A DNA stretch of 48,119 bases from a bacterium (GTDB taxonomy: Bacteria > Ratteibacteria > UBA8468). The stretch spans positions 1-48,119 of the forward strand of contig DAOVGU010000137.1 in assembly GCA_030672255.1 (NCBI GenBank). The letters run 5' to 3'. The notes below the pieces were generated by a model. The model searched no databases. It was not told the DNA's origin and saw only the letters and a list, made by a program, of their open reading frames with translations. The translations under genes and the position numbers were made by a program. Shown in pieces: positions 1,880-47,976 of the stretch. Numbering within the stretch: the first letter of the stretch is position 1; each line of letters starts with the position of its first letter.

Positions 1880-2128
1880 AATATGTTCGGACTATCTTCT
1901 TCAGCGGCACGTTTGTCAGGTCTCGCACCGATGGTGCTCGGTCAGGGTGCTCACATCTCGCACCCAATGCTGTCTCGTGCTCGTTATTCCTCGCACAGCA
2001 TTCCCAGCGAGTCTTTATCTTTTATGTTCTCCCCTCTGGGGAGATACAGAGGGGCGTGAGTTGCTAACAAGGCCGCTACAGAAATAGTCCTCACATTAGT
2101 GTTTATAATAAAAGCAAGGAAATTTTCC
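1880..2128. mobile_element. composite MITE-like element abutting the hps start codon
   Basis: It starts AATATGTTCGGACTATCTTCTTCAGCGGCACG directly after the CAT (ATG) of hps. The first ~75 nt are near-identical to 20147-20222. Internal modules are shared with 15990-16200. Confidence 0.6.
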
Positions 2129-2165
2129 AAGCCTTTTAGGTAATTATACCATATCTTCTCTCTGT

Positions 2166-2194
2166 TTGCCATTCTCTCTTTGGTATGATAAGAT
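2166..2194 (+). promoter_or_regulatory. candidate sigma70-type promoter for the GAD-domain gene
   Basis: TTGCCA (2166-2171), a 17-nt spacer, then TAAGAT (2189-2194). The SD GGGGGGTGA precedes the ATG at 2222. Confidence 0.3.
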
Positions 2195-2753: not shown

Positions 2754-3608
2754 ATGGGAAATTTGGTCAGAGAACCGGTGGTGGCGGGGCAGTTTTATCC
2801 CGCAGAGCCCGAGCAGCTGAGAAAAGCTCTTTCCTCCTATCTGGAGAGGAACTTACACCCCCACCTACCTCCTCCCCCCTTGAGGGGGAGGATAAAGGAG
2901 GGGGGAGGGGCAAAAGGAATTATTGTTCCCCATGCCGGTTATATTTACTCCGGACCGGTTGCCGGAGCAGTTTACTCCAGAATCATTCTGCCGGAGACAA
3001 TCATTCTTCTCGGGCCAAACCATACCGGGGTGGGCAAACCATTTTCTCTAATGAGGGAAGGAATCTGGAATACACCCCTCGGTAAGGTAGAGATATAAAC
3101 CTCAGTGGCTGAGGAAATTTTGAAGGATTCCCATTATCTTGAAGAGGATTTTCTGGCACATCAAGATGAGCATTCCTTAGAGGTGCAAATCCCTTTCCTC
3201 CAGGTTCTCTCTTCAGAATTTAAGATTATTCCCATTATCATCTCAGGAGGAGATGGCAAAACTCTGATGGCAATCGGAGAGGAGATTGCCGGGACATTGT
3301 TGAGATTAAAGAAAAACGTTCTTCTCATTGCCAGTTCAGATATGACCCATTATGAATCAGAAAAATCAGCCCGGGAAAAGGACGATTATGCTCTGGAGGC
3401 AATCCTGAAGTTAGATGAGGAGGAGTTACTAAAAAGGGTGGCAGAAAAAAATATCTCTATCTGCGGAGTAACTCCGGTAGTGGTGATGATTACCGCAGTC
3501 AAGAGGTTAGGAGCAAAAAAGGCAGAGTTAGTAAAATATCAGACAAGTGGGGCGGTAACCGGTGATTTAACCCAGGTAGTAGGGTATGCGGGCGTGATTG
3601 TAAGATAG
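2754..3608 (+). pseudogene. MEMO1-family / AmmeMemoRadiSam system protein B, interrupted by one in-frame TAA at 3096-3098
   Basis: ORFs 2754-3098 and 3105-3608 are in the same frame. Joined, they read VAGQFYP..IVPHAGYIYSG..LGPNH..WNTPLGKVEI*TSVAEEIL..EHSLEVQIPFLQ..SSDMTHY, a full-length Memo fold. Confidence 0.75.
2856..2910. repeat. C-rich/G-rich nested palindrome (family R3), in frame in the Memo gene
   Basis: CACCCCCACCTACCTCCTCCCCCCTTGAGGGGGAGGATAAAGGAGGGGGGAGGGG is translated as HPHLPPPPLRGRIKEGGG. A near-identical non-coding copy lies at 24361-24406. Confidence 0.85.
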
Positions 3609-3719
3609 GCAAGGAGGTTTACTTCAGCGGCACGCTCGCAGAGATGCTCGCTATGAGATGCCTCCTCTATCCTGGCTTCATACGGCATCTAATGCACGCT
3701 TAAAGTAAACCTCCTTGCC
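3608..3719. mobile_element. MITE-like element with 15-bp perfect TIR GGCAAGGAGGTTTAC
   Basis: GGCAAGGAGGTTTAC at 3608-3622 and its reverse complement at 3705-3719. The internal CTTCAGCGGCACGC module is shared with the junction elements. Confidence 0.65.
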
Positions 3720-3736
3720 TCGGTGTTAAAATATCA

Positions 3737-4745: not shown

Positions 4746-4899
4746 GTCATTGCGAGCGTGAGCGAAGCAATCCGACGGAGTCGTTGCGAGGAGTGAAACG
4801 ACGAAGCAATCTCAAAGAAGCGAGGGATTGCCACACTCACTTTGTTCGCTCGCAATGACAAGATGAGATTGCCACGTCGCTAATGCTCCTCGCAATGAC
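4746..4899. repeat. family R1 composite element (empty-site version)
   Basis: Almost identical to 5643-5814, but carries ACT where the other copy carries the 19-nt palindrome. Confidence 0.85.
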
Positions 4900-4961
4900 A
4901 CCTTGTGTCAGTTTCTATTCGTGTGTATTCGTGGATAAATAAAAAGCGAAGGGGGGGAATT

Positions 4962-5642: not shown

Positions 5643-5814
5643 GTCATTGCGAGCCTGAAGGCGAAGCAATCCGACGGAGTCGTTGCGAGGAGTGAAACGA
5701 CGAAGCAATCTCAAAGAAGCGAGGGATTGCCACACTCCCCCGTATTTAATACGGGGTTGTTCGCTCGCAATGACAAGATGAGATTGCCACGTCGCTAACG
5801 CTCCTCGCAATGAC
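5643..5814. repeat. family R1 composite element with nested R2 palindrome at 5737-5756
   Basis: GTCATTGCGAG...CCACACTC-CCCCGTATTTAATACGGGG-TTGTTCGCTCGCAATGAC...CTCGCAATGAC. Confidence 0.85.
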
Positions 5815-5831
5815 ATCTGTGGTTAGTTTTT

Positions 5832-6572
5832 ATGAATCAAAGGGAATTAAAGAAACTTCTTCTCAATCTCCAGAAGGGAAAAATTTCTTTAAAGGAGGCT
5901 GTTGCTCGGTTAAAGAATTTCCCCTATCTTGAGCTTGGTTTCGCTAAAGTTGACACCCATCGATCCTTGCGCCAGGGCTTTCCTGAGGTAATCTTTGGAA
6001 AAGGAAAGACAATTGAGCAATTGACGGCGATTATAGAAAAAATAAATGGGATGGAGGAAAACTTTCTGGTAACCAAGTTGGCTCCCCAGGTAGCAAAGAA
6101 AATTTTAAAGGATTTCCCTCATCTCTGTTATTTCCGAGAGGCTCAGATTCTGACCAAGAAAATCCCAAAGAAAAAGGAAGGCTCTATTGTTGTCCTTTCT
6201 GCGGGAACCTCCGATATCCCAATAGCTGAGGAGGCAGTGGTAACCGCCGAAGTCTTAGGAAATAAAGTTGTGAAAATCTACGATGTTGGGGTGGCGGGAA
6301 TCCACCGCCTCTTTAATCATTTAAATCTCATTCAGAAAGCAAAGGTACTGATCGTGGTCGCCGGGATGGAGGGAGCTCTTCCGGCGGTGGTGGGAGGGTT
6401 GGTAAGCCATCCGGTTATTGCTTTACCAACCTCGGTGGGCTATGGCGCCAGTCTGAAAGGAATTTCCGCCTTCTTAACGATGCTTAATTCCTGCTCGCCC
6501 AATGTTGCTACCGTCAATATTGATAATGGCTTTGGTGCCGGTTATCTCGCCAGCCTGATTAACCAAGGATAA
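5832..6572 (+). CDS. larB: nickel-pincer cofactor biosynthesis protein LarB (PurE-like AIR carboxylase domain)
   Basis: 246 aa. Motifs are VDTHRSLRQGFPEVIFGKGKT, then SAGTSDIPIAEEA..VAGMEGALP. Confidence 0.8.
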   Translation: MNQRELKKLLLNLQKGKISLKEAVARLKNFPYLELGFAKVDTHRSLRQGFPEVIFGKGKTIEQLTAIIEKINGMEENFLVTKLAPQVAKKILKDFPHLCYFREAQILTKKIPKKKEGSIVVLSAGTSDIPIAEEAVVTAEVLGNKVVKIYDVGVAGIHRLFNHLNLIQKAKVLIVVAGMEGALPAVVGGLVSHPVIALPTSVGYGASLKGISAFLTMLNSCSPNVATVNIDNGFGAGYLASLINQG

Positions 6573-13045: not shown

Positions 13046-13117
13046 CTTTGATACTCTTGTTTAATTACTCGCCATTGTGTCGCAAGCGAAGGAAAGCAAT
13101 GCTGGATATCATATCAA

Positions 13118-13137
13118 CCCCGTATTTAATACGGGGG
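13118..13137. repeat. R2 palindrome, intergenic
   Basis: CCCCGTATTTAATACGGGGG lies between ispD and argJ, nested between the ATTGTGTCG / CGACACAAT inverted repeats. Confidence 0.85.
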
Positions 13138-13153
13138 AGTAGGCCGACACAAT

Positions 13154-14960: not shown

Positions 14961-15989
14961 TTATTTTTCCCCTTTGGGTATCCTCAACAGCCTCCAGGGA
15001 TGTCTCTTAATCTCCTTCAGCAAACTCACAATCTCCCGATGCAACTCATCGGAGGCAATAAGTTTGCCAACCGTTCCTTCTTGATTTTCAATCCGGGAAG
15101 CAATCGTATTAACCTTAGAAACAATGGCATTAAACTCTGCGGTAGATTTGCGGAAACTTATGGCCGAAGCCTCTACCTCCTTCAATACCGACCTTAAATC
15201 GGAATAGAGTTTCTCATCCTTGGCTAATTTACCAAGGGTTGATTTCCCTTCCTCGGCTAACTTCAGAAATTTATTGACCCTTTCCGTAGTTTCCTTTAGG
15301 TTGGCTGCCACGAGTTTGCTATTGGTAATTGCCGCTTTGAGATCTTTTTTATTAGCCTCTAAAAGAGTCCGAAAAGCGGTGACTGAACCCTCAGTTTTTT
15401 CTGTTAAACTATTGATATTAGCTATCAATTCCTTTCCTCCTGTGGTAAGGGCTAAAAGATCTTTAAAGATCTTATTTAAGGAGATTTTCATCTCCTCATC
15501 GGCTAAAATATCATTGGCTGCGGCAAGAACCTGGGTAATATCCCGGATCATATCCTCTCCTAAATTGACCAATCTCTCCATGGGAATAGGATCGATCCCA
15601 TTGATAAGCTCCTTATCTCCAATTAAGGGGGTATCGGTAAGGGAGGTAGGCATAATCTCCGCATATCTATCTCCGACAAGGCCAAGGCTTCTGATGAGAA
15701 CCCGAGAACTCCTTCCTAATTTGACATCTTTCTTTAACCAGAGGGTAACAATTACCCTCGGCCTTTCTTCATATACTACCTCTATTTCCCTTACCTCACC
15801 AACCCGCACTCCACTTACCCTCACCGGCGCCCCCGGTTCGAGCCCGGAGACAAAATTGAAAGCAACCTTGACCTCATATCCTTCCTTCCTTAAGGTAAGA
15901 ATGCCCTTGGAAAATATGAATGCACCAAGAATAAGAAAAGCTAAAAGAAGAAAGACACCTACTCTCAATTCTAACGTTATCTTTTTCAT
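14961..15989 (-). CDS. mlaD: MlaD/MCE-domain lipid transport protein
   Basis: Start set at MKKITLELRVGVFLLL (ATG at 15987-15989). It has the MCE domain VAFNFVSGLEPGAPVRVSGVRVGEV and a long coiled-coil tail. Confidence 0.85.
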   Translation of the reverse strand: MKKITLELRVGVFLLLAFLILGAFIFSKGILTLRKEGYEVKVAFNFVSGLEPGAPVRVSGVRVGEVREIEVVYEERPRVIVTLWLKKDVKLGRSSRVLIRSLGLVGDRYAEIMPTSLTDTPLIGDKELINGIDPIPMERLVNLGEDMIRDITQVLAAANDILADEEMKISLNKIFKDLLALTTGGKELIANINSLTEKTEGSVTAFRTLLEANKKDLKAAITNSKLVAANLKETTERVNKFLKLAEEGKSTLGKLAKDEKLYSDLRSVLKEVEASAISFRKSTAEFNAIVSKVNTIASRIENQEGTVGKLIASDELHREIVSLLKEIKRHPWRLLRIPKGEK

Positions 15990-16200
15990 AGTATGTTCGG
16001 AGTATTTCTTCGGCGGCACGCCTCCAGAAATAGTCCTCTCATTAGTGTTTTAAATACAAAGGCGAGGAAAGTTTCTGTAGCGGCCTTGTTAGCGACGAAC
16101 GGGCACGGTGTCCTCGAAGAGGACGAGTGAGGAGCAACGAGAGCGAAGATTTCCTCGCTGGGGAAATCAAGCGTGCCGCCGAAGAAACTTTCCGAGCCTC
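15990..16200. mobile_element. junction TIR element (family R4) filling the mlaF-stop to mlaD-start gap exactly
   Basis: The 17-bp perfect inverted core is TTTCTTCGGCGGCACGC (16005-16021) / GCGTGCCGCCGAAGAAA (16171-16187). The termini touch TGA (16201-16203) and ATG (15987-15989). Confidence 0.75.
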
Positions 16201-16920
16201 TCATATTCTAAGGAATTCTTTGATAATTGGGTTATCCGTTTTTTGAATTTCCAAAGTAGTAAAGGGACCAATGATTTTGCCCTGATACAGCATCCCAATG
16301 CGATCGGCAATCTTATAGGCCGAATTCCTATCATGGGTAACGATAACTGAAGTCACAGAAAATTCGTTATGCAGGGAAAGAATAAGGTTATTTATCGCAT
16401 CGGCCATAATGGGATCTAAACCTGTAGTTGGCTCATCATAAAGCACAATTTCTGGATTGCTGATAAGGGCGCGGGCAAAGGCCACCCTCTTCTTCATTCC
16501 CCCGGAAAGCTGGCTTGGTTTCAACCCCTCGATGCCCTCCAAACCCACCATTTTTAGCAGATCTTCAACCCTTCTCCCTATTTCCCTTTCCTCTAATTCC
16601 ATATGCTCTTTGAGATAAAAAGCAACATTTTCTCCTATTGTGAGAGAGTCAAAAAGGGCATTACTCTGAAAGATGACTCCAAATCTCTTGCGGAATTTAT
16701 TCAACTCTCCTTCTTCAAGTTTAGTAATATTGGTGCCACCAATCGAAATCTCGCCCTCATCAGGTTTTATCAGTGCAAGAATGGTTTTTAAGAGGATGGT
16801 CTTACCACATCCGGTAGGACCAATAATCACTAAACTTTCCCCTTTTTTGACTTCTAAATTCAGATGGTCTAAAACCCTTTTTTCTTTAAAGAAGACAACA
16901 AGCTCCTTTATCTCAATCAT
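16201..16920 (-). CDS. mlaF: ABC transporter ATP-binding protein
   Basis: Start at MIEIKEL (ATG at 16918-16920). Motifs are Walker A GPTGCGKT, signature LSGGMKKR, Walker B IVLYDEP. Confidence 0.9.
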   Translation of the reverse strand: MIEIKELVVFFKEKRVLDHLNLEVKKGESLVIIGPTGCGKTILLKTILALIKPDEGEISIGGTNITKLEEGELNKFRKRFGVIFQSNALFDSLTIGENVAFYLKEHMELEEREIGRRVEDLLKMVGLEGIEGLKPSQLSGGMKKRVAFARALISNPEIVLYDEPTTGLDPIMADAINNLILSLHNEFSVTSVIVTHDRNSAYKIADRIGMLYQGKIIGPFTTLEIQKTDNPIIKEFLRI

Positions 16921-17288
16921 AGTATACTCGGAGTATTTCCTCGAGAGGACGCTCGTCTGGTGACTTCGCTCTGCTTTTCGGTTATTAGTGGGTGCAAGAA
17001 ACCTCAAAGCAAAGCCTCTTTACGGAAACACTCCTCCTCTCTGGTTTACATACAGAGGCGAGGAAGTTTCCTGAAGCGTGCCTTGTTACCGACTCGCGCC
17101 CCTCTGTGTCTCCCCACAAGTGGGGAGAACATTAAAAGAGAAGGACGAGCGAGGGTGCCTGTTGCGATGAATAAAGAGCAACGAGATTAGGCACGCCCGC
17201 CGAGATGTGAGGCGGGCCGGGGGAACGAGAGTGCAGATTCCCTCGCTGGGGGAATCAAGCGTGCCGCCGAAGAAACTTTCCGAGCCTC
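16921..17288. mobile_element. junction TIR element (family R4, larger composite) filling the mlaE-stop to mlaF-start gap exactly
   Basis: The right ~55 nt are identical in pattern to 16146-16200. The left end is AGTATACTCGGAGTATTTCCTCGAGAGG. It contains a nested R3 hairpin at 17109-17128. Confidence 0.7.
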
Positions 17289-18065
17289 TCATAAGAAATA
17301 AAAGAAAGCATTAATGATGAGATCGGCTAAGACAACCAGAAGAAAGGAGAAGGCCACCGAGAGCGTTGTTGCCCTTCCCACACCCTCTGCTCCTCCGGTA
17401 GTCTCAAACCCCTGACGAGAGGCCACAACCACAATAATGAGACCAAAGACAAAGGACTTTAAGAGCCCGATTAAAAGATCCTTGAAGAGAAGAAATTTGA
17501 ATGACTGATAAAGATACATATTTGAATTTATTCCCATCCCATAGACGGCAATGAACCAGCCACCAAAAATAGAAAGAAAAATAGCCATGAGAGTGAGAGC
17601 AGGCATCATAATGATAGCCGCGATGAGCCTTGGTCCCACCAGGTAACTTACAGGATTTACGGCAAGAGAGCGAAGGGCATCAATTTGCTCGGTAACCTGC
17701 ATGCTCCCTATCTCGGCACTGATTGCTGCTCCTACCCTGCTGGCAATAATTAAGGCGACAAAGATGGGGGACAACTCCCGAACAGCGGAGAGGCTAACTA
17801 GACTCCCTACATAGGTCTGGGCTCCTACCCTGCGGAGGGCAGCCGCCGATTGCATGGCCAATATCATCCCTAAAAGTATTGAGATAACACCAACCATTGG
17901 AAAAGACCTGTTCCCAAATTCATCCATCTGCTTGAGAACTTCCCTTCCCCTGAATTTTGAACTAAAAAGAGAGCCAACCGTTCTAAAACCGAGAAGTCCT
18001 AAGGAACCAAAATAGGAAAAGATACCTAATCCATTCCTGCCAAGTCTCTCCAAAAAATTAGTCAT
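17289..18065 (-). CDS. mlaE: ABC transporter permease
   Basis: Start at MTNFLERLG (ATG at 18063-18065). The polytopic protein looks like the MlaE/Ttg2B family. The upstream 60 codons of the ORF are R1 repeat sequence. Confidence 0.88.
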   Translation of the reverse strand: MTNFLERLGRNGLGIFSYFGSLGLLGFRTVGSLFSSKFRGREVLKQMDEFGNRSFPMVGVISILLGMILAMQSAAALRRVGAQTYVGSLVSLSAVRELSPIFVALIIASRVGAAISAEIGSMQVTEQIDALRSLAVNPVSYLVGPRLIAAIIMMPALTLMAIFLSIFGGWFIAVYGMGINSNMYLYQSFKFLLFKDLLIGLLKSFVFGLIIVVVASRQGFETTGGAEGVGRATTLSVAFSFLLVVLADLIINAFFYFL

Positions 18066-18107
18066 AAGTTCAATAGGATGCAGATTTTCACAGATGACAG
18101 TGCAACT

Positions 18108-18242
18108 GTCATTGCGAGGCCGAAGGCCGTGGCAATCCCTCACTTCTATGGGATTGCTTCGTCGTTCCACTCCTCGCAACGACTGCGTCGGATTGCTTCG
18201 CTTCGCTCGCAATGACAAGCGAGGGACCTCGCTCACAATGAC
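18108..18242. repeat. family R1 composite element
   Basis: The first ~55 nt are near-identical to 24249-24303. An extra CGTCGTTCCACTCCTCGCAACGACTGCGTCGGATTGCTTCG module is nested inside. Confidence 0.85.
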
Positions 18243-18262
18243 CATGTCACTTTAAACTATCT

Positions 18263-19648
18263 TCACTCCTGCCTGGGGGACCAGGGTTCAAACCTTGTAT
18301 ATTCCTTAATGAAGGTAAAGTTAATTGTGCCCGTAGGGCCATTACGTTGCTTGGCAATAATCAATTCAGTGGGCTCTTGCTTCTTTCCTTCCTCAGCAAT
18401 TCCCTCCCCCGTATTAAATACGGGGTCAGTAATTTCTTCCTCCTCGCGATAGAGAAGCAAAACCAAATCGGCATCCTGTTCCATGGCTCCACTTTCTCGT
18501 AAATCGGAGAGTCGTGGCCGTCGATGTTCCTCTGCCGCCCGTCTTAACTGAGAAAGGGCGATAATAGGAATCCCCAACTCTTTAGCCAGGGCTTTAAGGG
18601 AGGCAGAAATTTCGGTAATCTCCTGTTGTCGGTTCTCAATCCTCGTTCTTGTTTGCATCAACTGCAGATAGTCAACAATTACCAATTTAATTCCCTCCTT
18701 TGCCACCAGTCGCCTGGCCTTTGCCCTAATTTCCAAAATAGAAAGAGCCGGAGAGTCGTCAATAAAGATTGGCGCCTCCTGCAACCTGCCTGCGGCCATT
18801 GTTAGATTGGGCCAATCGGAATCTTTGGAAAAGCCGGTTCTTAACTTTAGGAGGTTTACCTTCGCCTCGGTGCAGAGCATCCTCTGAACTAACTGCTCCT
18901 TAGACATCTCTAAACTGAAAAAGGCTAAAGGTACTTTCTTCTTGGCGCCAAGATAAGAGGCGATGTTAGCCGCAAGGGAGGTTTTGCCAACCGAGGGGCG
19001 GGAGGCGACAATAATGAACTCCGAAGGTTGAAATCCTGAGGTTCGCATGTCCAGATCATAGAATCCGCTGGGCAGTCCCGTGATATAGCCTTTTTGGTCG
19101 GCTGCCTCCTCAATCGTCTCAATTGTCTGATGAACCAGCTCCCGAAAGGGGATAACCTCTCCTTTCCTCTTGCGATATCCTCCCACATCAAAAATAAGTT
19201 TTTCTGCTTCATCCAGAGTTTTATCAACATCATCGCTTTCCCAAACTTCATTAACAATTTTATTGCTATTCTCAATGAGACGCCGCAGGATAAACTTATC
19301 CCTCACAATCTTAATATATTGCTCGATATTTGCTGCCGAAGGAACGGCATCAATAAGCTTTGTGAGGTAGCTGGAACCACCAACCACTTCTAAATTGTGC
19401 TCACTTTTCAGTCTGTTCGTCAGGGTAACAAGATCGCAGGACTCATTCTTCTCAAAGAGATTCACAATTGCCTTAAAGATTTCACGATGGGCTTCCTTAT
19501 AAAAATTTTCTGGAGCAATCTCCTCAATCGCCTTATTTCTGGCCTTTTCCTCTAAAAGCATGGAGCCAAGAAGTGCTTGCTCAGCCTCGATATTGGCCGG
19601 TGGACTCTTCCCTATTTCCTCAACAGGAGAACTCTTTCTTCTCGCCAT
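18263..19648 (-). CDS. dnaB: replicative DNA helicase
   Basis: 461 aa. Motifs are NIEAEQALLGSML, Walker A SRPSVGKTS, and C-terminal AKQRNGPTG. Confidence 0.95.
   Translation of the reverse strand: MARRKSSPVEEIGKSPPANIEAEQALLGSMLLEEKARNKAIEEIAPENFYKEAHREIFKAIVNLFEKNESCDLVTLTNRLKSEHNLEVVGGSSYLTKLIDAVPSAANIEQYIKIVRDKFILRRLIENSNKIVNEVWESDDVDKTLDEAEKLIFDVGGYRKRKGEVIPFRELVHQTIETIEEAADQKGYITGLPSGFYDLDMRTSGFQPSEFIIVASRPSVGKTSLAANIASYLGAKKKVPLAFFSLEMSKEQLVQRMLCTEAKVNLLKLRTGFSKDSDWPNLTMAAGRLQEAPIFIDDSPALSILEIRAKARRLVAKEGIKLVIVDYLQLMQTRTRIENRQQEITEISASLKALAKELGIPIIALSQLRRAAEEHRRPRLSDLRESGAMEQDADLVLLLYREEEEITDPVFNTGEGIAEEGKKQEPTELIIAKQRNGPTGTINFTFIKEYTRFEPWSPRQE
18406..18425. repeat. R2 palindrome in frame in dnaB
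   Basis: CCCCCGTATTAAATACGGGG is read on the minus strand as (D)PVFNTG(E). Confidence 0.9.
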
Positions 19649-19659
19649 TTGAGATTCTT

Positions 19660-19678
19660 CCCCCGTATTAAATACGGA
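19660..19678. repeat. R2 palindrome (one arm degenerate), rplI-dnaB intergenic
   Basis: CCCCCGTATTAAATACGGA. Confidence 0.8.
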
Positions 19679-19693
19679 GTCAGAATGACTTCG

Positions 19694-20146
19694 TCACCTT
19701 TCCTTTATTACCCAAACCTTCAACTCGCTTTCTATCCCGGGAGCCAACTTCAAAGGAACCTTATAGACCCCTAACCTCTTTATTGGTTCGGGTAGAAGGA
19801 TCGATTGCTTTTTTAGTTTGATCCCATGCTCCTGGAAAAGAGCGGTAATAATCTCCTCCTTTGTCACCGAGCCAAAAAGCCTCTCGGCCTCTCCTACCCG
19901 AGCGGCGATGGTGCAGGAGATCTTTCCTATTTTTTCTGCCAATCTTCTTGTGGCCTCTTTCTCCCTTTCCTCCTTTTCTCTCTTCCTCTTCTTTTCTACC
20001 TCTAATAGTTTGATATTACTTATCGTCGCTGAATAGGCCCATCCTTTCGGGAGAAGAAAATTTCTGGCATAACCATCCTTTACCTCAATCACCTCTCCCC
20101 CTTTTCCTAATTTTTCCACATCCTTCCTTAGAACGATTTTCATCAT
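19694..20146 (-). CDS. rplI: 50S ribosomal protein L9
   Basis: 150 aa. N-terminus is MKIVLRKDVEKLGKGGEVIEVKDGYARNFLLPKG. Confidence 0.95.
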   Translation of the reverse strand: MMKIVLRKDVEKLGKGGEVIEVKDGYARNFLLPKGWAYSATISNIKLLEVEKKRKREKEEREKEATRRLAEKIGKISCTIAARVGEAERLFGSVTKEEIITALFQEHGIKLKKQSILLPEPIKRLGVYKVPLKLAPGIESELKVWVIKER

Positions 20147-20279
20147 ATGTTCGGACTATCTTCTTCAGCGGCACGCTTGTTTGGTCTCGCACCGATGGTG
20201 CTCGGTCAGGGTGCGAGATGTGAGCACCCTGCCTGACGAAGCGATAGCTGAGAAGACCTCTCGAGGAAATACTCCGAGC
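20147..20279. mobile_element. junction TIR element (family R4) filling the rpsR-stop to rplI-start gap exactly
   Basis: Left end ATATGTTCGGACTATCTTCTTCAGC, right end GCTGAGAAGACCTCTCGAGGAAATACTCCGAGCC. It touches TAG (20280-20282) and ATG (20144-20146). Confidence 0.75.
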
Positions 20280-20528
20280 CTACCGAACCATATATGGCAA
20301 TAGCGCCATAAACCTTGCCCTCTTAATTGCCCGGGCAAGGGCACGCTGATGCTTAAGGCAGGTTCCGGTAGTAGAGCGGGGAAGGATTTTGCCCCTACCG
20401 CTGATGCATCTTCTAATTCTGCTTATCTCTTTATAATCGATTTCTTTAATCTTATCCTTGCAGAATCTACATACCTTCGGAAGTGGCCTCTCCTTCTTCC
20501 TTTTCTTTCTTTTCCTCCCTTTCACCAT
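20280..20528 (-). CDS. rpsR: 30S ribosomal protein S18
   Basis: 82 aa. Motifs are [15 protein letters not shown]...LPYM. Confidence 0.93.
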
Positions 20529-21173: not shown

Positions 21174-21182
21174 AATCTTTTT

Positions 21183-21210
21183 ATTATACCGTTTTCTCTT
21201 AAAAAGTCAA
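21183..21210 (-). promoter_or_regulatory. near-consensus promoter of the rpsF-ssb-rpsR-rplI operon
   Basis: The minus strand reads TTGACT (21210-21205), a 16-nt spacer, TATAAT (21188-21183), then 9 nt, then the ATG. Confidence 0.55.
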
Positions 21211-21211
21211 A

Positions 21212-21298
21212 TGGTGGGGATAGAGAGATTTGAACTCTCACGGTCTTTCGACCACTAGCTCCTGAAGCTAGCGCGTCTGCCAGTTCCACCATATCCCC
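21212..21298 (-). tRNA. tRNA-Leu (anticodon CAG), CCA encoded
   Basis: The minus strand reads GGGGATATGGTGGAACTGGCAGACGCGCTAGC-TTCAGGA-GCTAGTGGTCGAAAGACCGTGAGAGTTCAAATCTCTCTATCCCCACCA. It is a class II tRNA with a long variable arm. Confidence 0.93.
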
Positions 21299-24232: not shown

Positions 24233-24436
24233 AGATTAACACAGGAATGTCATTGCGAGGCCGAAGGCCGTGGCAATCCCTCACTTCTATGGGATTGCTT
24301 CGCTTCGCTCGCAATGACAGTTGCATTGTCATCTGCGTTTATCTGCGTCCAATAAATTACACCCCCACCTACCTCCCCCCTTGAGGGGGAGGATTGAGGA
24401 GAGGGGTAACTTTGAAATTCCATACGATAAATTATT
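24233..24436. repeat. intergenic mosaic of five repeat families in series
   Basis: In order: AACCACAGATTAACACAG; R1 (24249-24318); ATCTGCGTTTATCTGCG; R3 (24361-24406); the 21-mer TTGAAATTCCATACGATAAAT (24412-24432). Confidence 0.85.
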
Positions 24437-25534: not shown

Positions 25535-26617
25535 TTACAGAATCAGCATCGCATCGCCATAACTGGCGAAGCGGTATTTTCCTTTGATTGCCTCAGAATA
25601 GGCTCTCTGAATTAATTCCTTCCCGGCAAAGGTAGCGACTAAAAGAAAGAGGGTGGTAGATGGAAGATGAAAATTGGTAAGCATGCTATCTGTAATCTTA
25701 AATCTATAGCCGGGGTAGATATATAGTGAGGTCCAGCCTTTCCTGGGCTCTACATAACCATCGGTGTTGGCTGTTGTTTCTAAAACCCGCACACTGGTTG
25801 TTCCTACCGCAATGATTCTTTTGCCCTCTTTTTTAGTCTTATTAATCAATTTAGCTGCACCAGGAGGAAGTTCAAAATATTCCTTTTCCATCTGATGCTT
25901 TTCAATATCTTCCTCTCTGATTGGCTTAAAGGTGCTCCAGCCAATATTTAAGGTAACAAAGGTGATGCTCACTCCTTTTTCTTTCACTCTCTGCAAAAAT
26001 CCTTCAGTAAAATGTAAGCCAGCGGTAGGAGCCGCAATTGCTCCATTTCTTTTGCTATAGACGGTCTGGTAATAAGTCATATCAATAGGTAAGGGTTTTC
26101 GCTTAATGTAGGGAGGTAGAGGAATCTCGCCAATCTTCTTCAATAGCTCCTCTATCCTTCCCGGATAAAGAAACTCTACTTTGTACTTCCCATTCTTCTT
26201 TTCTAAGATTTTTGCTTTTATTCCTTCATTGAAGAAGATTGTTGAGCCAACCCTTATTCTTGGTCTGGCCAATGCTTCATAGATACTTTTCCCCTCACCT
26301 CTATCCGGGGGATGCACTCCCTCAAGGGGAGTGGAGCCCCCGGAAATTAGGCGGGGGTGTAACCTACGAAGCACCAAAAGTTCTGCCCTTCCTCCGGTTT
26401 CCTTTTTTCCTTTGAGCCGGGCTGGAATCACCTTGGTATTATTTAAGACCAAAAGGTCCCCTGAGGAAAGATAGTCGAGAAGAGCAGGAAAGATGCGATG
26501 CTCAATCCTTTTCTCCTTTCTTTTGATGACCAATAGCCTTGCCCTTTCTCTCTTTAAAAGTGGCATCTGGGCAATTAGCTCCTTTGGCAGGAAGTAGTCA
26601 AAATCGGAAAGTCTCAT
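25535..26617 (-). CDS. queA: S-adenosylmethionine:tRNA ribosyltransferase-isomerase
   Basis: 360 aa. Motifs are MRLSDFDYFLPKELIAQ...PTAGLHFT...SYGDAMLI. Confidence 0.95.
   Translation of the reverse strand: MRLSDFDYFLPKELIAQMPLLKRERARLLVIKRKEKRIEHRIFPALLDYLSSGDLLVLNNTKVIPARLKGKKETGGRAELLVLRRLHPRLISGGSTPLEGVHPPDRGEGKSIYEALARPRIRVGSTIFFNEGIKAKILEKKNGKYKVEFLYPGRIEELLKKIGEIPLPPYIKRKPLPIDMTYYQTVYSKRNGAIAAPTAGLHFTEGFLQRVKEKGVSITFVTLNIGWSTFKPIREEDIEKHQMEKEYFELPPGAAKLINKTKKEGKRIIAVGTTSVRVLETTANTDGYVEPRKGWTSLYIYPGYRFKITDSMLTNFHLPSTTLFLLVATFAGKELIQRAYSEAIKGKYRFASYGDAMLIL
26291..26359. repeat. R3-type triple-nested palindrome in frame in queA
   Basis: Read on the minus strand as (L)HPRLISGGSTPLEGVHPPDRGEG. 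Arms are CACCCCCGCC/GGTGAGGGG, TCCGGGGG/CCCCCGGA, CACTCCCC-TTGA-GGGAGTG. Confidence 0.8.
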
Positions 26618-26631
26618 AATACATTATAGCT

Positions 26632-26724
26632 GTCATTGCGAAGCCGAAGGCTGTGGCAATCTCTGACTTCTCTGAAGAGAGAGATTCTTCGTCCGCCAAT
26701 AAATATTGGCGGACTCAGAATGAC
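26632..26724. repeat. R1-like element (GTCATTGCGAAG ... CTCAGAATGAC)
   Basis: Its right end supplies the last codons and the TGA stop (26715-26717) of the GT2 gene. Confidence 0.7.
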
Positions 26725-27520: not shown

Positions 27521-28642
27521 CTAAATTAAATTTTTATCTTTCAATTTTTTCGCTGCCTTCTCAAAAAAATCCTCTGCCTCCACGCTCTTTGACCAGTCAA
27601 CCAATTCTTCTATTCCTTCTTCCAGATTTATTCTCGGTTGAAAGCCCAAGAGCCTTTTTATCTTGCCAATATCGGCAAAGCAATGCCGGATATCACCCTT
27701 ACGGAATTTATTGGTAATTTCGGGTTTTATTGATTTTCCGGTTGCTTTGGTTAATCTTTCTGCTATTTTCAGAATGGTCGTTGCTTTTCCTGAACCCAGA
27801 TTAAAAATCTGATAATCTGCCTTTTCCTTCTCCATCGCTAAAATATTTGCTCTTACCACATCATAGACCGAAATGAAATCCCGGGATTGGCTACCATCCT
27901 CATAGATAATCGGGGCTTTACTATTCTTGATTCTTGATAAGAAAATGGCCATTACCCCGGTATAGGGATTGGAGAGGGACTGTCTTGGACCATAGACATT
28001 AAAGAAGCGAAGAACAACTACCGGGAGAAAATAGGTTTTGCCGATATTTAAGACGAGCTCCTCCTGGGTTTTCTTAGTGATGGCATAGATGGAGTTTACA
28101 TTTAATCTTGCTGATTCTCTGGTAGCGACTGGCTTTAAAATTCTCTGGCAGGCAGGGCAATAAGGTTCCCAGTCCTTCCTTTTTAATTGGCGAAGAACCC
28201 GTAACTCTGGCTGAACAATCCCACAGGAGGAACATCTATACTCCCCTTCACCGTACTCACTCATCGAAGCGGCCAAAATCAGCTTTTTTATTTTATTTTT
28301 GTTATTTACTATAAGGTCGAGGAGATTGGCTGTCCCGCCAATATTGGTCTCCACATATCTTTTTACTTCGTACTGGCTCTGGCCAATGCCAACGGCTGCG
28401 GCAAAATGAAAGATAATTTCTATATTTTTTATTGCTTTCTTTAAATCATTTAGTTTCCTGATATCTCCTTTAATAAATTTCGCCCTTCCCGTATTAAATA
28501 CGGGATAGGCCGGTAATCTTTTTTCGGGATGAACCTGGGCCTCTAAGTTATCGAAAGCGGTTACCTGATGGCCTTTTTTAACCAATTCATCAACAAGGAA
28601 ACTGCCAATAAACCCTGCCCCTCCCGTCACTAATATTTTCAT
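27521..28642 (-). CDS. NAD-dependent sugar epimerase/dehydratase (extended SDR) with Cys4 insert
   Basis: 373 aa. It has TGGAGFIGS and YAITK (YxxxK). An extra CSSC...CPAC segment lies at 28148-28234. Confidence 0.85.
   Translation of the reverse strand: MKILVTGGAGFIGSFLVDELVKKGHQVTAFDNLEAQVHPEKRLPAYPVFNTGRAKFIKGDIRKLNDLKKAIKNIEIIFHFAAAVGIGQSQYEVKRYVETNIGGTANLLDLIVNNKNKIKKLILAASMSEYGEGEYRCSSCGIVQPELRVLRQLKRKDWEPYCPACQRILKPVATRESARLNVNSIYAITKKTQEELVLNIGKTYFLPVVVLRFFNVYGPRQSLSNPYTGVMAIFLSRIKNSKAPIIYEDGSQSRDFISVYDVVRANILAMEKEKADYQIFNLGSGKATTILKIAERLTKATGKSIKPEITNKFRKGDIRHCFADIGKIKRLLGFQPRINLEEGIEELVDWSKSVEAEDFFEKAAKKLKDKNLI
28488..28504. repeat. R2 palindrome in frame in the SDR gene
   Basis: CCCGTATTAAATACGGG is read on the minus strand as PVFNTG (residues 47-52). 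Confidence 0.9.
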
Positions 28643-28645: not shown

Positions 28646-29968
28646 TTATCCCCTTCCCACTCCCTCATAAACAAATCCCAATTTTTTCATTCTTTCCGGC
28701 TCATAGATATTGCGACCATCAATGAGATAAGGCTTTTGCAGCAACCTTTTTACCTTGATTAAGTTGAGATTCTTAAATTCCTCCCATTCGGTAAGAATAA
28801 GCAGGAGCTCAGCATCTTTGCAGACTTCATAAGGGTTTCTGCAATAGGTAATCCGCCAATGTTTAGTGGCGGAGGGAAAAATTTTCTTTGTCTCCCTCAT
28901 CGCCTCAGGGTCATATACCCGAAGAACCGCCCCCTCGGAAAGAAGCTCTTTTATAATCTTAATGGAAGGAGCTTCCCGAATATCATCGGTATTCGGTTTA
29001 AAGGAAAGGCCCAGGATGCCAATTCTCCTATTTTTCAGGGTCGGCAGGAGTCTTTTTACCTTCTTGAAAAGAAGGTTTAATTGTTCTTGATTAATCCTTT
29101 GCACCGCTTTAAGCAGACTAAAGTCGTAGCCTTCCTCCTTCGCCAGATGGATAAAGGCGGCTACATCCTTAGCAAAGCAGCTGCCTCCATAGCCAATTCC
29201 TGCAGAGAGAAATTTTTTACCAATGCGGGAATCATAGCCCATCCCCTTTGCTACCTGGCTAACATCCGCTCCTACCTTCTCACAGATACGAGAGATCGCA
29301 TTGATGTAGGAAATTTTTGTGGCTAAAAAGGAGTTAGAGGCATGCTTAATCAGTTCAGCGCTCCTTACATCGGTGAAGATAATCGGTGCTTTTATTGGTC
29401 GATAAAGCTCGGCTAATGTTCTTCTTGCTCTTTGCGATTCGGCGCCGATGATAATACGTTCGGGTTGCAAAAAATCCAATATTGCCGAGCCTTCCCTTAA
29501 AAATTCCGGATTAGCGGCCAGATCAAAATCAACCTCTTTCCTTTTAATCAAATTAATTGTTCTCTTTACCCATTCCCCGGTCATTACCGGAACGGTGCTC
29601 TTCTCCACCAGTAATTTATAACCCTTCATTGCCTTTGCTATCTCTGAGGTAACCGCCTCAACAGCCGAAAGGTCTGCCCCTCCATCTTTTTTAGAAGGGG
29701 TTCCTACAGCGATAAAGATAATCTCAGAAACACTGATAGCCTCTTTAATACTCCCACTAAAGGAAAGTTTTTCTCTTTTCACCGCTTTTTTCACTATCTC
29801 TTCCAAACCAGGCTCAAAGAAGGGCATTATCCCTTTTTTAAGACCACCTATCTTTCTCTGATCATTATCTACACAGATGACCTTTCCCGTATTAAATACG
29901 GGATTAGCAAAACAGGCCGCGGTTACCAATCCGACGTGGCCGGCTCCAATTACCGTGATTCCTTTCAT
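28646..29968 (-). CDS. ugd: UDP-glucose 6-dehydrogenase
   Basis: It has GAGHVGLV and catalytic GGSCFAKD. The start at 29968 gives an ATGA overlap with the upstream stop. Confidence 0.92.
   Translation of the reverse strand: MKGITVIGAGHVGLVTAACFANPVFNTGKVICVDNDQRKIGGLKKGIMPFFEPGLEEIVKKAVKREKLSFSGSIKEAISVSEIIFIAVGTPSKKDGGADLSAVEAVTSEIAKAMKGYKLLVEKSTVPVMTGEWVKRTINLIKRKEVDFDLAANPEFLREGSAILDFLQPERIIIGAESQRARRTLAELYRPIKAPIIFTDVRSAELIKHASNSFLATKISYINAISRICEKVGADVSQVAKGMGYDSRIGKKFLSAGIGYGGSCFAKDVAAFIHLAKEEGYDFSLLKAVQRINQEQLNLLFKKVKRLLPTLKNRRIGILGLSFKPNTDDIREAPSIKIIKELLSEGAVLRVYDPEAMRETKKIFPSATKHWRITYCRNPYEVCKDAELLLILTEWEEFKNLNLIKVKRLLQKPYLIDGRNIYEPERMKKLGFVYEGVGRG
29886..29902. repeat. R2 palindrome in frame in ugd
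   Basis: CCCGTATTAAATACGGG is read as (FAN)PVFNTG(KVICVD). Confidence 0.9.
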
Positions 29969-36167: not shown

Positions 36168-38194
36168 ATAAACCTATATTTAATTAGGGTCCAGACAGCA
36201 ATAAACCAATCCTTCAGCCTGATCTTCTTTCCCTCGGCTACCCCTCTTGGCCTATGGGAAATTGGCACTTCTTTAATCCTTATTCCTCTTTTAGCTACCT
36301 TAGCCGTAACCTCAGGACAGAATTCAAATCCTTTGCATTTTAAATTTAGGCTTTTTAAGAGATTGGCCTCGAAAACCTTATAGCAGGTTGGCTCATCGGT
36401 AATATGGGTCCGATAGAGCAAATTAGCCAAAATGCTCAAGCTTCTGCCACCGAGATAGAAATACCAGCCCGCCAAGGACTTCGGTTTTGAACTCTGACCC
36501 AGGACCCTGGAACCATAAACAACCTTTGTCTCTTCCTTTATTATTGGCTCTACCAACATATAATACTCATCGGGGTTATATTCCAAATCGGCATCCTGGA
36601 TGATGACAATATCCCCAGTCACCTCTTTTAATCCAGTGCGAATTGCAGTTCCCTTTCCATATTTTTTTGGCCGGCTGATAAGCTTAATCTCATTATTGCC
36701 GTCTTTCTGCTTAATAATTTCCTTTAAGACCTCTTTGGTCTTATCGGTAGAACCATCCTCGACAATGATAATCTCCTTCTTTAAATTGACCGCCCTTACT
36801 CTATGGATAATTTCGGCAATCGTTTTTTCCTCATTATAGACCGGCATAATCACAGAGAGTTTCATCTCTTTAACCACAGATGTCATTGCGAGGAGCCTTA
36901 GCGACGTGGCAATCCCTCGCTTCTTTGAGATTGCCACGGCACTTCGTGCCTCGCAACGACTCCGTCGTTTTGAATTTTTAATTGTTCTACACAGCCCTCC
37001 CCCCGCAAGAGCATAAACAAGAGGCATTATGGGAATTCTATACCTGGGAATAGCAAAAAGAAGGCTATGAATAAAAGTAAAATAAAAAATCATTAAGAGA
37101 GGGATAAATAGTTCTTTTCTCTTTTCCTTTAGACAAAGGTATAACCCTGAAAGAAAGAAAAAGAGAAGAATATAGTGGAAGGTAAAGATAAAAGCCTTCT
37201 GTAAATTTTTCCCCTCTAAAACCCTCTTTCCTCCGGGAATCTGAAGCCAAAACCTACCAAATTTCTTTAGACATAACAAAGAATAACCACCGGGATTATT
37301 TTTGATATTCTTTACCCCCTCGGAAAAAAACTTTTTATCTGCATCAATCTGAGAAAGTCCTCTTACCAAATTTTCCTTATCAGAGAGGTTCTTATAATTG
37401 TAGTCTCCATTCCAGGGAAGGTAACTTCCAACCCAGAGGTTAAAACCCCCGCCAGTTCCTACTGGAATAAATTCTTTAAAGACAATGTAATTCCTTACTG
37501 TCCAGGGAAGAATTGTTCCGGCCATTGTCAGAGAAAAAATTACCACAAAAATAAGTTTCTTAAATCTTTTTCTGGGGTACAAAACACCCCCTCCCTTCTC
37601 TTCCCCTCCCTCGAGGGGAGGGGCAAGGGGAGGGTGAAAAAACAATAAGCCAAGTAACAAGAAAAGGGGGAATAGTAAAGTAACTGGCCGGCAAAGGGTT
37701 GAGAATCCCAAAAAAATGCCGGATGCTACCCAATCCCCCCTTTTTTTGCTTTCCAAAGCCTTCATCAGCAATATCACCGCTATTGTCAATAAGAATGTGG
37801 TAAGGGTCTCGGTGAGAATATAGGAGTTTGAGGCAACGAGTGAAGGACAGATAACCGCAGCACCTGCCCCCAAGATAGCAGTTTTTTTATTCTTGAAAAT
37901 TCTCTCTCCAATGAGATAAACAAATAGGCAAATGATTGCCCCTAAAATGCTCTGAATAATCCTTACCGCTAAAAAATTATGTCCAAAAATAAGATAAACA
38001 ATCGCTAAAAAAGATGGATATAAAGGTGCCCGATGTAAATTGATAGAAAATCCTAAACCATTGGCAATATGAAGTGCCATTTTATTATAATCAATGCTAT
38101 CCGGGGCAGAAAGAGGGAAAAGAACAATAAAGATAAAGCGGATAAAAAAAGCAGAGAGAAAAATGAATATCAAGGTTTTCCTTTTATTCACCAC
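36161..38194 (-). CDS. continuous ORF joining a GT-C (ArnT-like) membrane glycosyltransferase to a Dpm1/ArnC-like GT2 domain through an R1 repeat
   Basis: 677 aa. Residues 1-~410 are polytopic. The linker CEARSAVAISKKRGIATSLRLLAMTSVV is the translated repeat. It is followed by MKLSVIMPVYNEEKT..VEDGSTDKT..QDADLEY. Confidence 0.75.
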   Translation of the reverse strand: MVNKRKTLIFIFLSAFFIRFIFIVLFPLSAPDSIDYNKMALHIANGLGFSINLHRAPLYPSFLAIVYLIFGHNFLAVRIIQSILGAIICLFVYLIGERIFKNKKTAILGAGAAVICPSLVASNSYILTETLTTFLLTIAVILLMKALESKKRGDWVASGIFLGFSTLCRPVTLLFPLFLLLGLLFFHPPLAPPLEGGEEKGGGVLYPRKRFKKLIFVVIFSLTMAGTILPWTVRNYIVFKEFIPVGTGGGFNLWVGSYLPWNGDYNYKNLSDKENLVRGLSQIDADKKFFSEGVKNIKNNPGGYSLLCLKKFGRFWLQIPGGKRVLEGKNLQKAFIFTFHYILLFFFLSGLYLCLKEKRKELFIPLLMIFYFTFIHSLLFAIPRYRIPIMPLVYALAGGGLCRTIKNSKRRSRCEARSAVAISKKRGIATSLRLLAMTSVVKEMKLSVIMPVYNEEKTIAEIIHRVRAVNLKKEIIIVEDGSTDKTKEVLKEIIKQKDGNNEIKLISRPKKYGKGTAIRTGLKEVTGDIVIIQDADLEYNPDEYYMLVEPIIKEETKVVYGSRVLGQSSKPKSLAGWYFYLGGRSLSILANLLYRTHITDEPTCYKVFEANLLKSLNLKCKGFEFCPEVTAKVAKRGIRIKEVPISHRPRGVAEGKKIRLKDWFIAVWTLIKYRFIC
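36882..36972. repeat. family R1 element translated as an interdomain linker
   Basis: GTCATTGCGAGGAGCC...GGCAATCCCTCGC...CTCGCAACGACTCCGTCG. There is no stop codon in the host frame. Confidence 0.85.
37585..37636. repeat. R3 nested palindrome in frame in the GT-C domain
   Basis: Read as (F)HPPLAPPLEGGEEKGGGV. The inner hairpin is CCCCTCCC-TCGA-GGGGAGGGG. Confidence 0.85.
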
Positions 38195-41950: not shown

Positions 41951-41964
41951 TTGACAGCGTAGCT

Positions 41965-42102
41965 GTCATTGCGAGCCCAAAGGGCGTGGCAATCCTTCCT
42001 GCTGTCATTCCCGTGTAAACGGGAACCTATTATTAGATTCCTGCTTCCGCAGGAATGACAAACTCCAACGGAGTTGACTGAAGTATTTACCCTCGCAATG
42101 AC
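41965..42102. repeat. R1 element with a nested GTCATTCC...GGAATGAC unit (42004-42059)
   Basis: GTCATTGCGAGCCC...GGCAATCC / GTCATTCCCGTGTAAACGGGAAC...ATTCCTGCTTCCGCAGGAATGAC / ...CTCGCAATGAC. Confidence 0.8.
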
Positions 42103-45604: not shown

Positions 45605-45618
45605 GTTTATGCTATAAT
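45591..45618 (+). promoter_or_regulatory. candidate topA promoter, leaderless geometry
   Basis: TTGATA (45591-45596), a 16-nt spacer, TATAAT (45613-45618), then 7 nt, then the ATG at 45626. Confidence 0.5.
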
Positions 45619-45625
45619 CAAAAAT

Positions 45626-47883: not shown

Positions 47884-47976
47884 TTTTGGTACGGTGTTCA
47901 CTGAGTACTTACTTACAGTTTAAAGTTAAAAGTTGAGAGTTAAAAGGTAAATATTCAGTAAAGTACGTTCCATCCT

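Follow-up and report, generated by a model that had tools for sequence, protein, structure and literature searches.

What kind of element can fill an operon junction so exactly that it begins at the stop codon of one gene and ends at the ATG of the next, and how can a structured insert of 100-370 nt sit in such a junction without breaking translational coupling? These questions are raised by a contig of 48,119 nucleotides assigned to Ratteibacteria (DAOVGU010000137.1; this whole stretch is called the window below), in which copies of an inverted-repeat element directly precede the start codons of hps, mlaD, mlaF and rplI. We favor, with a probability of roughly 0.6, the interpretation that these elements are lineage-specific mobile repeats of a clade within Omnitrophota, resembling MITEs (miniature inverted-repeat transposable elements) or REPINs, that insert in one polarity immediately 5′ of ATG codons and whose fold would keep the downstream gene translated. 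According to the Pfam labels of the called genes, the minus strand carries the order rpsF-ssb-rpsR-rplI-dnaB-mlaE-mlaF-mlaD, which relatives share; in the gene-order comparison rpsR was uncalled in the related contig L001 but called in L004 and L007. The window contains four copies of the element and one variant, as follows.

1880..2134, minus strand: hps element, the entire hps leader, with the ATG at 1877-1879; repeat family D11
15990..16200, minus strand: mlaF/mlaD element, 211 nt, from the mlaF stop codon (16201-16203) to the mlaD ATG (15987-15989); repeat family D13
16921..17288, minus strand: mlaE/mlaF element, 368 nt, a mosaic of several hairpin modules, from the mlaE stop codon to the mlaF ATG (16918-16920)
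20144..20279, minus strand: rpsR/rplI element, from the rpsR stop codon TAG to the native rplI ATG (20141-20143)
3609..3730, plus strand: related unit with inverted repeats GGCAAGGAGGTTTACTT.../...AAGTAAACCTCCTTGCC, a variant copy

Repeat ends at start and stop codons

In the mRNA sense, the start-facing ends at hps, mlaD, mlaF and rplI (n = 4 inserts) consist of TCCGA, 7 nt and the ATG. The pattern TCCGARYATAYNATG had four matches in the window, all on the minus strand (1877-1891, 15987-16001, 16918-16932 and 20141-20155), and none in 100 shuffled sequences. Thus the statement of an earlier sequence-only reading that one repeat terminus abuts four ATGs was confirmed, and the sequences it quoted were present. 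Two of its start coordinates required correction: the mlaF ATG is at 16918-16920 and, since rplI has two tandem ATGs, comparison with relatives and the Pfam L9_N match were used to place the native start at 20141-20143. The opposite terminus abuts the upstream stop codon as that reading had proposed, with TGA-GAGGCTCGGAAAGTTTCTTCGGCGGCACGC following both mlaE (stop at 17289-17291) and mlaF (stop at 16201-16203), or TGA-GAGGCTCGGAAAG... when read further, and TAG-GCTCGGAGTATTTCC following rpsR (stop at 20280-20282). The tips of the mlaF/mlaD element are GAGGC-TCGGAAAG... on the stop-facing side and ...TCCGA-ACATACT on the start-facing side, and those of the rpsR/rplI element are TAG-GCTCGGAG at the 5′ end and TCCGA-ACATATG at the 3′ end.

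The termini are inverted repeats of about 28-30 nt. A 17-nt core, GCGTGCCGCCGAAGAAA, is found at 16005-16021 (minus), 16171-16187 (plus) and 17259-17275 (plus); when up to 3 mismatches were allowed, the window contained 6 matches compared with 0.04 expected. The mlaD copy holds the core as a perfect repeat, and both the 17-bp core and the insert lengths of 211, 368 and 133-136 nt were borne out. Copies in the window are 92-95% identical across 75-77 nt, and the 3′ 77 nt of the hps element are 95% identical to the rplI copy. Across all elements the length ranges from 84 to 373 nt, and no open reading frame (ORF) bearing a Pfam domain was found inside them. The hps element has no upstream gene and is instead preceded by a promoter-like site, TGGTATAAT. 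The variant unit at 3609..3730 begins on the stop codon (TAA/TAG) of the ORF at 3105-3608 and ends 17 nt before an ATG at 3737.

To examine the relationship between repeat ends and codons beyond the window, species-representative genomes were scanned once and metagenomes once, with search patterns that excluded the tips. About 100 of the 112 stretches matched by the first genome-wide DNA pattern were chance matches in high-GC genomes. Family members came from two related metagenome-assembled genomes (MAGs), CSMAG_1977, which also holds L001 and contains at least 12 family loci, and CSMAG_1505, as well as from one Ratteibacteria contig and 11 metagenome contigs. The census of ends was anchored on a 14-nt core of the inner repeat with up to 2 mismatches, and 36 of its 38 matches were family ends. 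Because the anchor lay on the inner repeat alone, the ends were not selected in advance for what adjoins them.

All 24 start-facing ends had an ATG 7 or 8 nt after TCCGA, with identical polarity, and the start codon was never GTG or TTG; by rough start calls, GTG or TTG makes up about one quarter of the longest-ORF starts in the window. A further 12-13 of the 36 ends faced a stop codon and two (hps and L137) faced a promoter, and none departed from this start, stop or promoter rule. The stop codons that elements face close ORFs of 82-609 codons, or ORFs that reach the end of the contig, and the distance from the first base of the stop to the GGC or GGAG of the upstream tip is 2-7 nt. Thus the proposal that the termini are tied to start and stop codons withstood the census without a counterexample, the association being far stronger than chance would give. 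Downstream of the start-facing ends are about 22 unrelated housekeeping genes, including those for HypA, SecE, GcvP, RpoD, PilT, LpxA, YggS, DprA, HycI, an NrnA-like protein, FabD, PfkB, an M16 peptidase, PurD, NusG, ferredoxin, L9 and MlaD. In nearly all of these proteins the first Pfam match starts at residues 1-6, and therefore the ATGs abutted by elements are native N-termini. The listed Hps homologues are nearly all 428 aa. Other repeat families of the window do not abut codons in this way, namely GTCATTGCGAGG..., which occupies the dnaB/mlaE junction, and the CCCCGTATTAAATACGGGG hairpins. Were the rule to hold across the whole genome, this would be among the cleanest bacterial repeat families positioned base-for-base at start and stop codons, in a phylum without genetics.

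Filled sites, empty sites and flanking repeats

MlaF homologues are all 239 aa, and the closest, with 89% identity, is encoded on contig L001 from a 'Candidatus Omnitrophica' MAG. In that contig the mlaE/mlaF and mlaF/mlaD pairs overlap by four bases, and all three operon junctions are plain, element-free ATGA stop/start overlaps:

mlaE/mlaF junction, empty in L001: cttcttATGAttgag
mlaF/mlaD junction, empty in L001: agaatATGAaaaag
rpsR/rplI junction, empty in L001: gtgagATGAaaatc

In the window, ATGA is present on both flanks of the two mla inserts, which read ...cttATGA[GAGGC...TATACT]ATGAttgag at mlaE/mlaF and ...aatATGA[GAGGC...CATACT]ATGAaaaag at mlaF/mlaD. The left ATGA retains the upstream stop codon and the right ATGA retains the downstream start codon, and for this reason the junction is filled exactly. 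The positions of these repeats are:

16201..16204, minus strand: left ATGA, consisting of the mlaF stop and a spare ATG; right counterpart at 15986-15989, the mlaD ATG plus A
17289..17292, minus strand: left ATGA, consisting of the mlaE stop and a spare ATG; right counterpart at 16917-16920

Filled and empty sites could also be compared at two junctions of other kinds. The empty hps sites of L150 and L152 read TGGTATA(C/A)T followed by 9-10 nt and the ATG, which is a promoter of the leaderless type; in the window the same -10 box is followed by TACCTAAAA, then by the element and then by the ATG. The corresponding promoter-like site (2143..2172, minus strand; ATGGCA-18-TATAAT with TG before the -10 box) lies just upstream of the hps element and is conserved in element-free relatives. 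At pilB/pilT, the empty sites of L155-L157 consist of TAA, 1-4 nt and ATG, and the filled site of L098 consists of TAA, AGGAGAC-TCGGAG...ACACATT and ATG. From these sequence comparisons at five junctions (the three operon junctions, hps and pilB/pilT) we conclude that the elements are insertions into pre-existing junctions. One consequence is practical, in that gene callers misplace starts at elements. The public MlaF record (P0001; window 16201-17007) is 268 aa long, in comparison with 239 aa in its homologues, and takes its start from a TTG within the element; at this gene the repeat leads start prediction astray.

ATG-containing direct repeats of 4-7 nt flank seven elements. Their sequences, together with that at an unrelated insert, are:

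mlaE/mlaF and mlaF/mlaD elements: TATGA
L122: TATGAAG
L142: TTATGAA
L062: ATGAAGA
L015: ATGC
L007 (Ratteibacteria-like relatives; same mlaE/mlaF junction, unrelated insert): TCTATGA

The common denominator of these repeats is ATG(N); four are exactly 7 nt, in different registers. Two other schemes of duplication were considered. Duplication of TA, as by IS630/mariner-like elements, was rejected: it fits five of the seven readable elements, fails at L062 (AA-TGA) and L015, and would strip rpsR of its stop codon. Fixed duplication of either 5 nt (TATGA) or 7 nt does not fit all elements, since only ATG(N) is common to them and hps and pilB/pilT have no duplication. We also considered a Y1 transposase gene (PF01797, IS200/RAYT-like) at 2685-3359 of L152, directly downstream of hps, as the source of mobility; its flanking inverted repeats, GGGGACGGTTCTA and TAGAACCGTCCCC, are unrelated to the family.

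The insert with TCTATGA flanks is a different composite of about 410 nt that begins GTAGGCTTGGAAG and is located at the mlaE/mlaF ATGA junction at 3570-3980 of L007, and also in L004 and L006. The sequences suggest that this junction was apparently struck independently in the Ratteibacteria-like relatives.

Units, tips and predicted folds

Each element is a mosaic of 1-3 units that have inverted repeats at their borders. One unit that recurs, about 130 nt long, carries GAGCAACGAGAG followed by a 7-bp hairpin with the invariant loop TCGCTGG. This hairpin is found in the window as follows.

16148..16168, plus strand: internal hairpin GATTTCC-TCGCTGG-GGAAATC; second copy at 17236-17256

Among 22 copies of the hairpin, the stem showed compensatory changes at 6 of its 7 pairs, and 97.4% of cells were paired, whereas shuffles reached 71% and slid controls no more than 70%. 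The internal unit is found in either orientation relative to the host gene, but the tips stay on their own sides whichever way it points. GAGG or GGAG is present in every upstream tip (GAGAGGC, AAGAGGC, GGGAGGC or AGGAGAC, with ATG[A/T]GAGGAC within arrays), and the downstream tip is an A/T-rich sequence of 7-8 nt (ACATATT, ACATACT, ACGTACT or ACGCACTT). The leaders had been described as lacking a purine-rich Shine-Dalgarno (SD) sequence; that description requires amendment, because they are not wholly free of purine-rich sequence and GAGAGG, at the 5′ tip, immediately follows the stop codon. In each subfamily the stop-facing tip is a G-version of the start-facing tip (start-facing/stop-facing AGTATAC/AGGAGAC, ARTATGT/GAGAGGC and TTCGG/GAGG). 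That the same differentiation recurs in separate inverted-repeat subfamilies suggests selection for an SD-like sequence at the upstream tip.

A different arrangement was found at 10656-10815 of L145, where a hybrid element of about 160 nt has start-facing tips at both ends (CAT-AGTATAC-TCGGAG ... TCCGAAC-GTACT-ATG) and is the sole separator of divergent nusG-like and hycI genes. This speaks for recombination between copies of the element and for rearrangement of gene order by them.

The four window copies are predicted to fold stably, with the following minimum free energies (MFE).

mlaF/mlaD element: MFE -81.6 kcal/mol, z -4.4
mlaE/mlaF element: MFE -160.7 kcal/mol, z -7.0
rpsR/rplI element: MFE -58 kcal/mol, z -3.0
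hps element: MFE -99.6 kcal/mol, z -6.3

In 18 of 20 elements an MFE helix encloses at least 70% of the element; in most, 0-13 nt remain unpaired 5′ of the helix (in four elements, 15-38 nt) and 0-11 nt 3′ of it. These predictions agree with the earlier proposal of a long hairpin that brings the stop codon near the start codon.

One frame of the mlaF/mlaD element is open throughout and bridges the two genes.

15986..16204, minus strand: bridging ORF of 72 codons; its left ATG overlaps the mlaF stop and its TGA overlaps the mlaD ATG, with a -4 overlap at each end

The other two frames of this element contain 2-3 stop codons each. The same arrangement was found in L142, between a CPBP-like gene and purD, where an ORF of about 103 codons occupies the sole stop-free frame. 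Thus a bridging ORF is present in two of the four elements whose frames were checked. Neither the mlaE/mlaF element (368 nt) nor that of L122 (354 nt) is in phase, and the ORFs that start at their left ATGs end early; the left ATG is absent from most other elements. There is no conservation between the two bridging peptides; this argues for an open frame as such and not for a protein product. Neither this ORF, nor the ATGA repeat that regenerates stop and start, the SD-like 5′ tip and the precedent of the MIRUs discussed below, had been part of the sequence-only reading.

No terminator-like or promoter-like site was scored inside the mla or rplI copies, so the expectation that these copies lack internal termination and promoters of their own was supported, as far as a scan of the sequence can indicate. 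In the hps copy the promoter scan identified a weak CTGACA-17-GATAGT in the start-facing arm. No element matched an Rfam family at gathering score, and at E <= 1 there were no matches in the mla elements and two weak, sub-threshold matches in or beside the hps copy. A tRNA gene at 21215-21298 (minus strand) was the single Rfam match in the window at gathering score. Separately, TATAAT occurs 7-9 nt before the ATG at rpsF (~21174-21195) and topA (~45605-45625), and the distance at hps in relatives is 9-10 nt, a pattern suggesting that leaderless or near-leaderless mRNAs may be common in the lineage.

Explanations and known systems

The interpretation that we favor can be described as a series of steps. 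A small, non-coding mosaic repeat would integrate at the 5′ edge of an ATG in fixed polarity. Where the target is an ATGA overlap, the four bases would end up on either side, the left copy terminating the upstream gene and the right copy starting the downstream gene; at a non-overlapping start, the insert would separate the stop codon, or promoter, from the ATG, and no duplication would be evident. The upstream tip would supply a purine-rich, SD-like sequence (GAGAGG, AGGAG or GGGAGG) and the downstream tip an A/U-rich spacer of 7-8 nt. In the transcript the inverted repeats would pair, bringing the stop codon and SD-like tip to within about 8-13 nt of the ATG, and the 5′ arm would be opened, and the start codon released, by a ribosome that ends translation at the left UGA or begins again at the left AUG. 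Either effect would keep the downstream gene translated, such that these positions would be tolerable or even favored. Insertion at the 5′ edge of the ATG in one polarity, regeneration of stop and start at ATGA sites, differentiated tips and predicted end-closing folds are established parts of this interpretation. A more specific form, in which a start-codon-recognizing mobile element carries a split ribosome-binding site (RBS; a GAGG/AGGAG arm plus the 7-8 nt spacer), rebuilds the initiation region once folded in the mRNA and so hides itself from translation, we put forward only tentatively.

Several results weigh against the favored interpretation. Among the approximately 35 family loci retrieved, neither a transposase nor an autonomous partner sharing these inverted repeats was found. 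Duplication was not uniform, being absent at hps and pilB/pilT, and additional changes are required to derive the left flank of the rpsR/rplI element, CGGTAGGC, from ATGA. Moreover, because ATGAGAGG recurs inside unit arrays, the left ATGA may have come with the element and not from duplication of the target. Stop-facing flanks are often AT(G/A)(A/G), with seven ATGA, three ATAA and three ATAG among 17; this pattern would be expected if a left ATGA decayed while a stop codon had to be kept, and would equally fit an element-borne ATGA. Predicted folds of the sense strand were not systematically more stable than those of the antisense strand (13 of 20; Wilcoxon p = 0.065), and the antisense strand of the mlaD copy, in which the unit is reversed, was more stable by 15 kcal/mol. 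Sense and antisense MFE values and G-U counts indicated that wobble asymmetry tracks the orientation of the internal unit and not the host mRNA, and therefore there is no sign of selection on the mRNA fold; the earlier suggestion of such selection thus found no support. As a speculation, a strand bias inherited with the unit would also fit a single-stranded DNA intermediate. Finally, we infer from sequence both the mode of insertion and the downstream translation, including every translation and coupling step described above.

Some of the same observations might be explained without target recognition. An ordinary MITE with no specificity could produce a similar distribution if a compact genome left ATGA-spanning duplications or spacers of 1-4 nt as its sole harmless sites; the pilB/pilT spacer in relatives is just 1-4 nt, and the 7-nt repeats TATGAAG, TTATGAA, ATGAAGA and TCTATGA, with their varied registers, have the pattern of a fixed-length duplication filtered by selection. 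However, this origin appears quite unlikely given that the distance to the ATG was 7-8 nt in 24/24 ends, even at roomy sites behind a promoter or tRNA (hps, secE and the M16 peptidase gene), that polarity was the same in all 24, that every start was ATG, and that the other repeat families of the window do not abut codons. It is also conceivable that the family acts as MIRUs may, with a translated internal ORF, ATGA-coupled to the upstream stop and downstream start, handing ribosomes through the insert. The bridging ORFs of the mlaF/mlaD element (72 codons) and L142 (~103 codons), each in the sole stop-free frame, and the MIRU precedent itself (PMC12548453, PMC3184786) argue for such a relay. 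Since the mlaE/mlaF and L122 elements are out of phase with early-ending ORFs and most elements have no left ATG, a MIRU-like relay explains a subset only, and the lack of conservation between the two bridging peptides adds to our doubt that it accounts for the family.

Other possibilities assign the function to the RNA or to the DNA arm. A processing or regulatory hairpin, acting in the manner of Correia or ERIC elements through RNase III cleavage or altered mRNA stability, would uncouple or tune the flanking cistrons. The 17-bp perfect core within the closing duplex and the very stable predicted structures are consistent with this role, and Correia elements bind RNase III and are cleaved or protected (PMC2649163). 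We consider this explanation unlikely, however, as it leaves the fixed 7-8 nt distance and the abutment of stop codons unexplained and the wobble asymmetry does not follow the mRNA strand. The elements might instead be portable promoters in which an outward -35/-10 pair (TTGATG or CTGACA, 17 nt, GATAGT) fires 4-5 nt before the ATG to give near-leaderless transcripts. Such an arrangement would agree with the TATAAT found 7-10 nt before the ATG at rpsF, topA and, in relatives, hps, with the CTGACA-17-GATAGT flagged in the hps copy, and with the divergent L145 genes separated by the hybrid element of about 160 nt alone. Yet three of the four window copies, those at mla and rplI, had no scored promoter-like site, the mla copies have AATACT where hps has GATAGT, and the -10 is weak (4/6 matches, no TG) and sits 11-12 nt from the ATG, farther than in native promoters, all of which makes this role improbable. 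Lastly, conserved structure beside start codons and an internal hairpin with an invariant loop and covarying stem would be expected of an immobile cis-regulatory RNA, such as a riboswitch, thermometer or leader common to a regulon. We reject this explanation as very unlikely, because the downstream genes are functionally unrelated and close relatives hold empty sites; in addition, elements combine 1-3 units as mosaics in which the internal unit may face either way, and no Rfam family matches them, even at E <= 1.

Among known repeats, the closest in behavior are the MIRUs (mycobacterial interspersed repetitive units; Supply et al. 1997, as reviewed in PMC12548453 and PMC3184786), which 'insert themselves at start codons' with -4 coupling (PMC12548453) and show tetranucleotide direct repeats and empty sites in relatives (PMC3184786). 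Both are small mobile repeats in operon junctions with ends on the neighboring stop and start at -4 (ATGA) spacing, and two elements described here contain an ORF that bridges the junction completely. The 'RNA unfolding' model of translational coupling (PMC12548453) is a counterpart of the ribosome-unwinding step proposed above. In contrast to the family described here, MIRUs are unrelated in sequence, belong to a different phylum and are 40-100 bp units often arranged in tandem, as variable number tandem repeats; the present elements are 84-373 nt hairpins with inverted repeats of about 30 nt and no tandem direct units, the bridging ORF is present in a minority, and the tips are split into SD-like and A/U-rich ends. 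The family would offer an independent system, beside MIRUs, for asking how small non-autonomous elements find start codons.

In structure the closest are MITEs of the Correia/ERIC type. Correia elements (CREE/NEMIS, Neisseria) and ERIC (enterobacteria) are likewise non-autonomous, bounded by inverted repeats and about 100-300 bp long, and they are co-transcribed with their neighbors, form long hairpins and can affect expression (PMC2649163). The sequence-only reading had called the present family MITE/Correia-like; a MITE-like mobile family is supported by the filled and empty sites at five junctions, but a relation in sequence to Correia elements is not, since the inverted repeat here is GGCTCGGAAAGTTTCTTCGGCGGCACGC, which differs from the Correia consensus. 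In addition, TA, the duplication made by Correia elements, does not flank L062 or L015, the host belongs to Omnitrophota and not Neisseria, and no base-for-base link to start and stop codons is known for Correia elements, to which IHF binding and promoter creation are also ascribed. Neisseria REP2 and Borrelia IR-A/IR-B are found immediately upstream of genes, with an end that coincides with the downstream ATG (PMC3184786). Unlike the present elements, REP2 lacks terminal inverted repeats and is described as having its own promoter and RBS (PMC3184786); here the empty sites identify the ATG as the native host start, and a promoter is doubtful.

The family's arrays of inverted units are reminiscent of BIMEs or REPINs, and its strand asymmetry follows the unit. 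REP, BIME and REPIN sequences are GC-rich palindromes of 20-40 nt with a conserved tetranucleotide head and a cognate Y1 transposase (RAYT) flanked by the palindromes, whereas the Y1 gene found in L152 is flanked by GGGGACGGTTCTA and not by this family. IS900, an insertion sequence (IS) of the IS110 family, reportedly targets translation initiation signals, according to work by Doran et al. in 1997 (cited in PMC8141618). Insertion beside host start codons in a specific orientation is the likeness; the difference is that IS900, 1.4 kb long, is autonomous, encodes a DEDD transposase and lacks long inverted repeats, and the present elements encode nothing recognizable. In phage T4 genes 38 and 25, a hairpin between the SD sequence and the AUG draws them to a functional spacing and so constitutes a split RBS. 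By analogy, this is the mechanism that the GAGG tip and the ATG may use here, although the T4 hairpins are about 20 nt and immobile and the intervening structure here is 84-373 nt, with a function that we propose from its position. Because the family differs in sequence and architecture from MIRUs, from Correia and ERIC elements, from REP2 and the Borrelia repeats and from IS900, it is a member of none of these, and a literature search for the same phenomenon in Omnitrophota found nothing.

The window contains further repeats. A second abundant family (GTCATTGCGAGG...GGCAATCCC..., with the palindrome TGACAGCnnnGCTGTCA) fills the dnaB/mlaE junction at 18067-18262 with 196 nt, compared with 36 nt in L001. 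Other copies are at 2604-2682, 4746-4918, 5643-5833, 24233-24318, 26616-26685, 36871-36972, 41949-42018, 44029-44172 and 47971-48106, and the family end ...CGCAATGAC lies 14-17 nt upstream of the gene starts at 26617, 41950, 5832 and 24232. Short hairpins of the sequence CCCCGTATTAAATACGGGG occur at 5734-5763, 13115-13143, 18403-18432, 19657-19686, 28483-28512, 29881-29910, 44003-44032 and 47991-48020, that at 19657-19686 taking the place of 7 nt of the L001 rplI/dnaB spacer. Finally, a 110-nt segment is present at 47415-47662 as two direct copies that are 84% identical and 138 nt apart.

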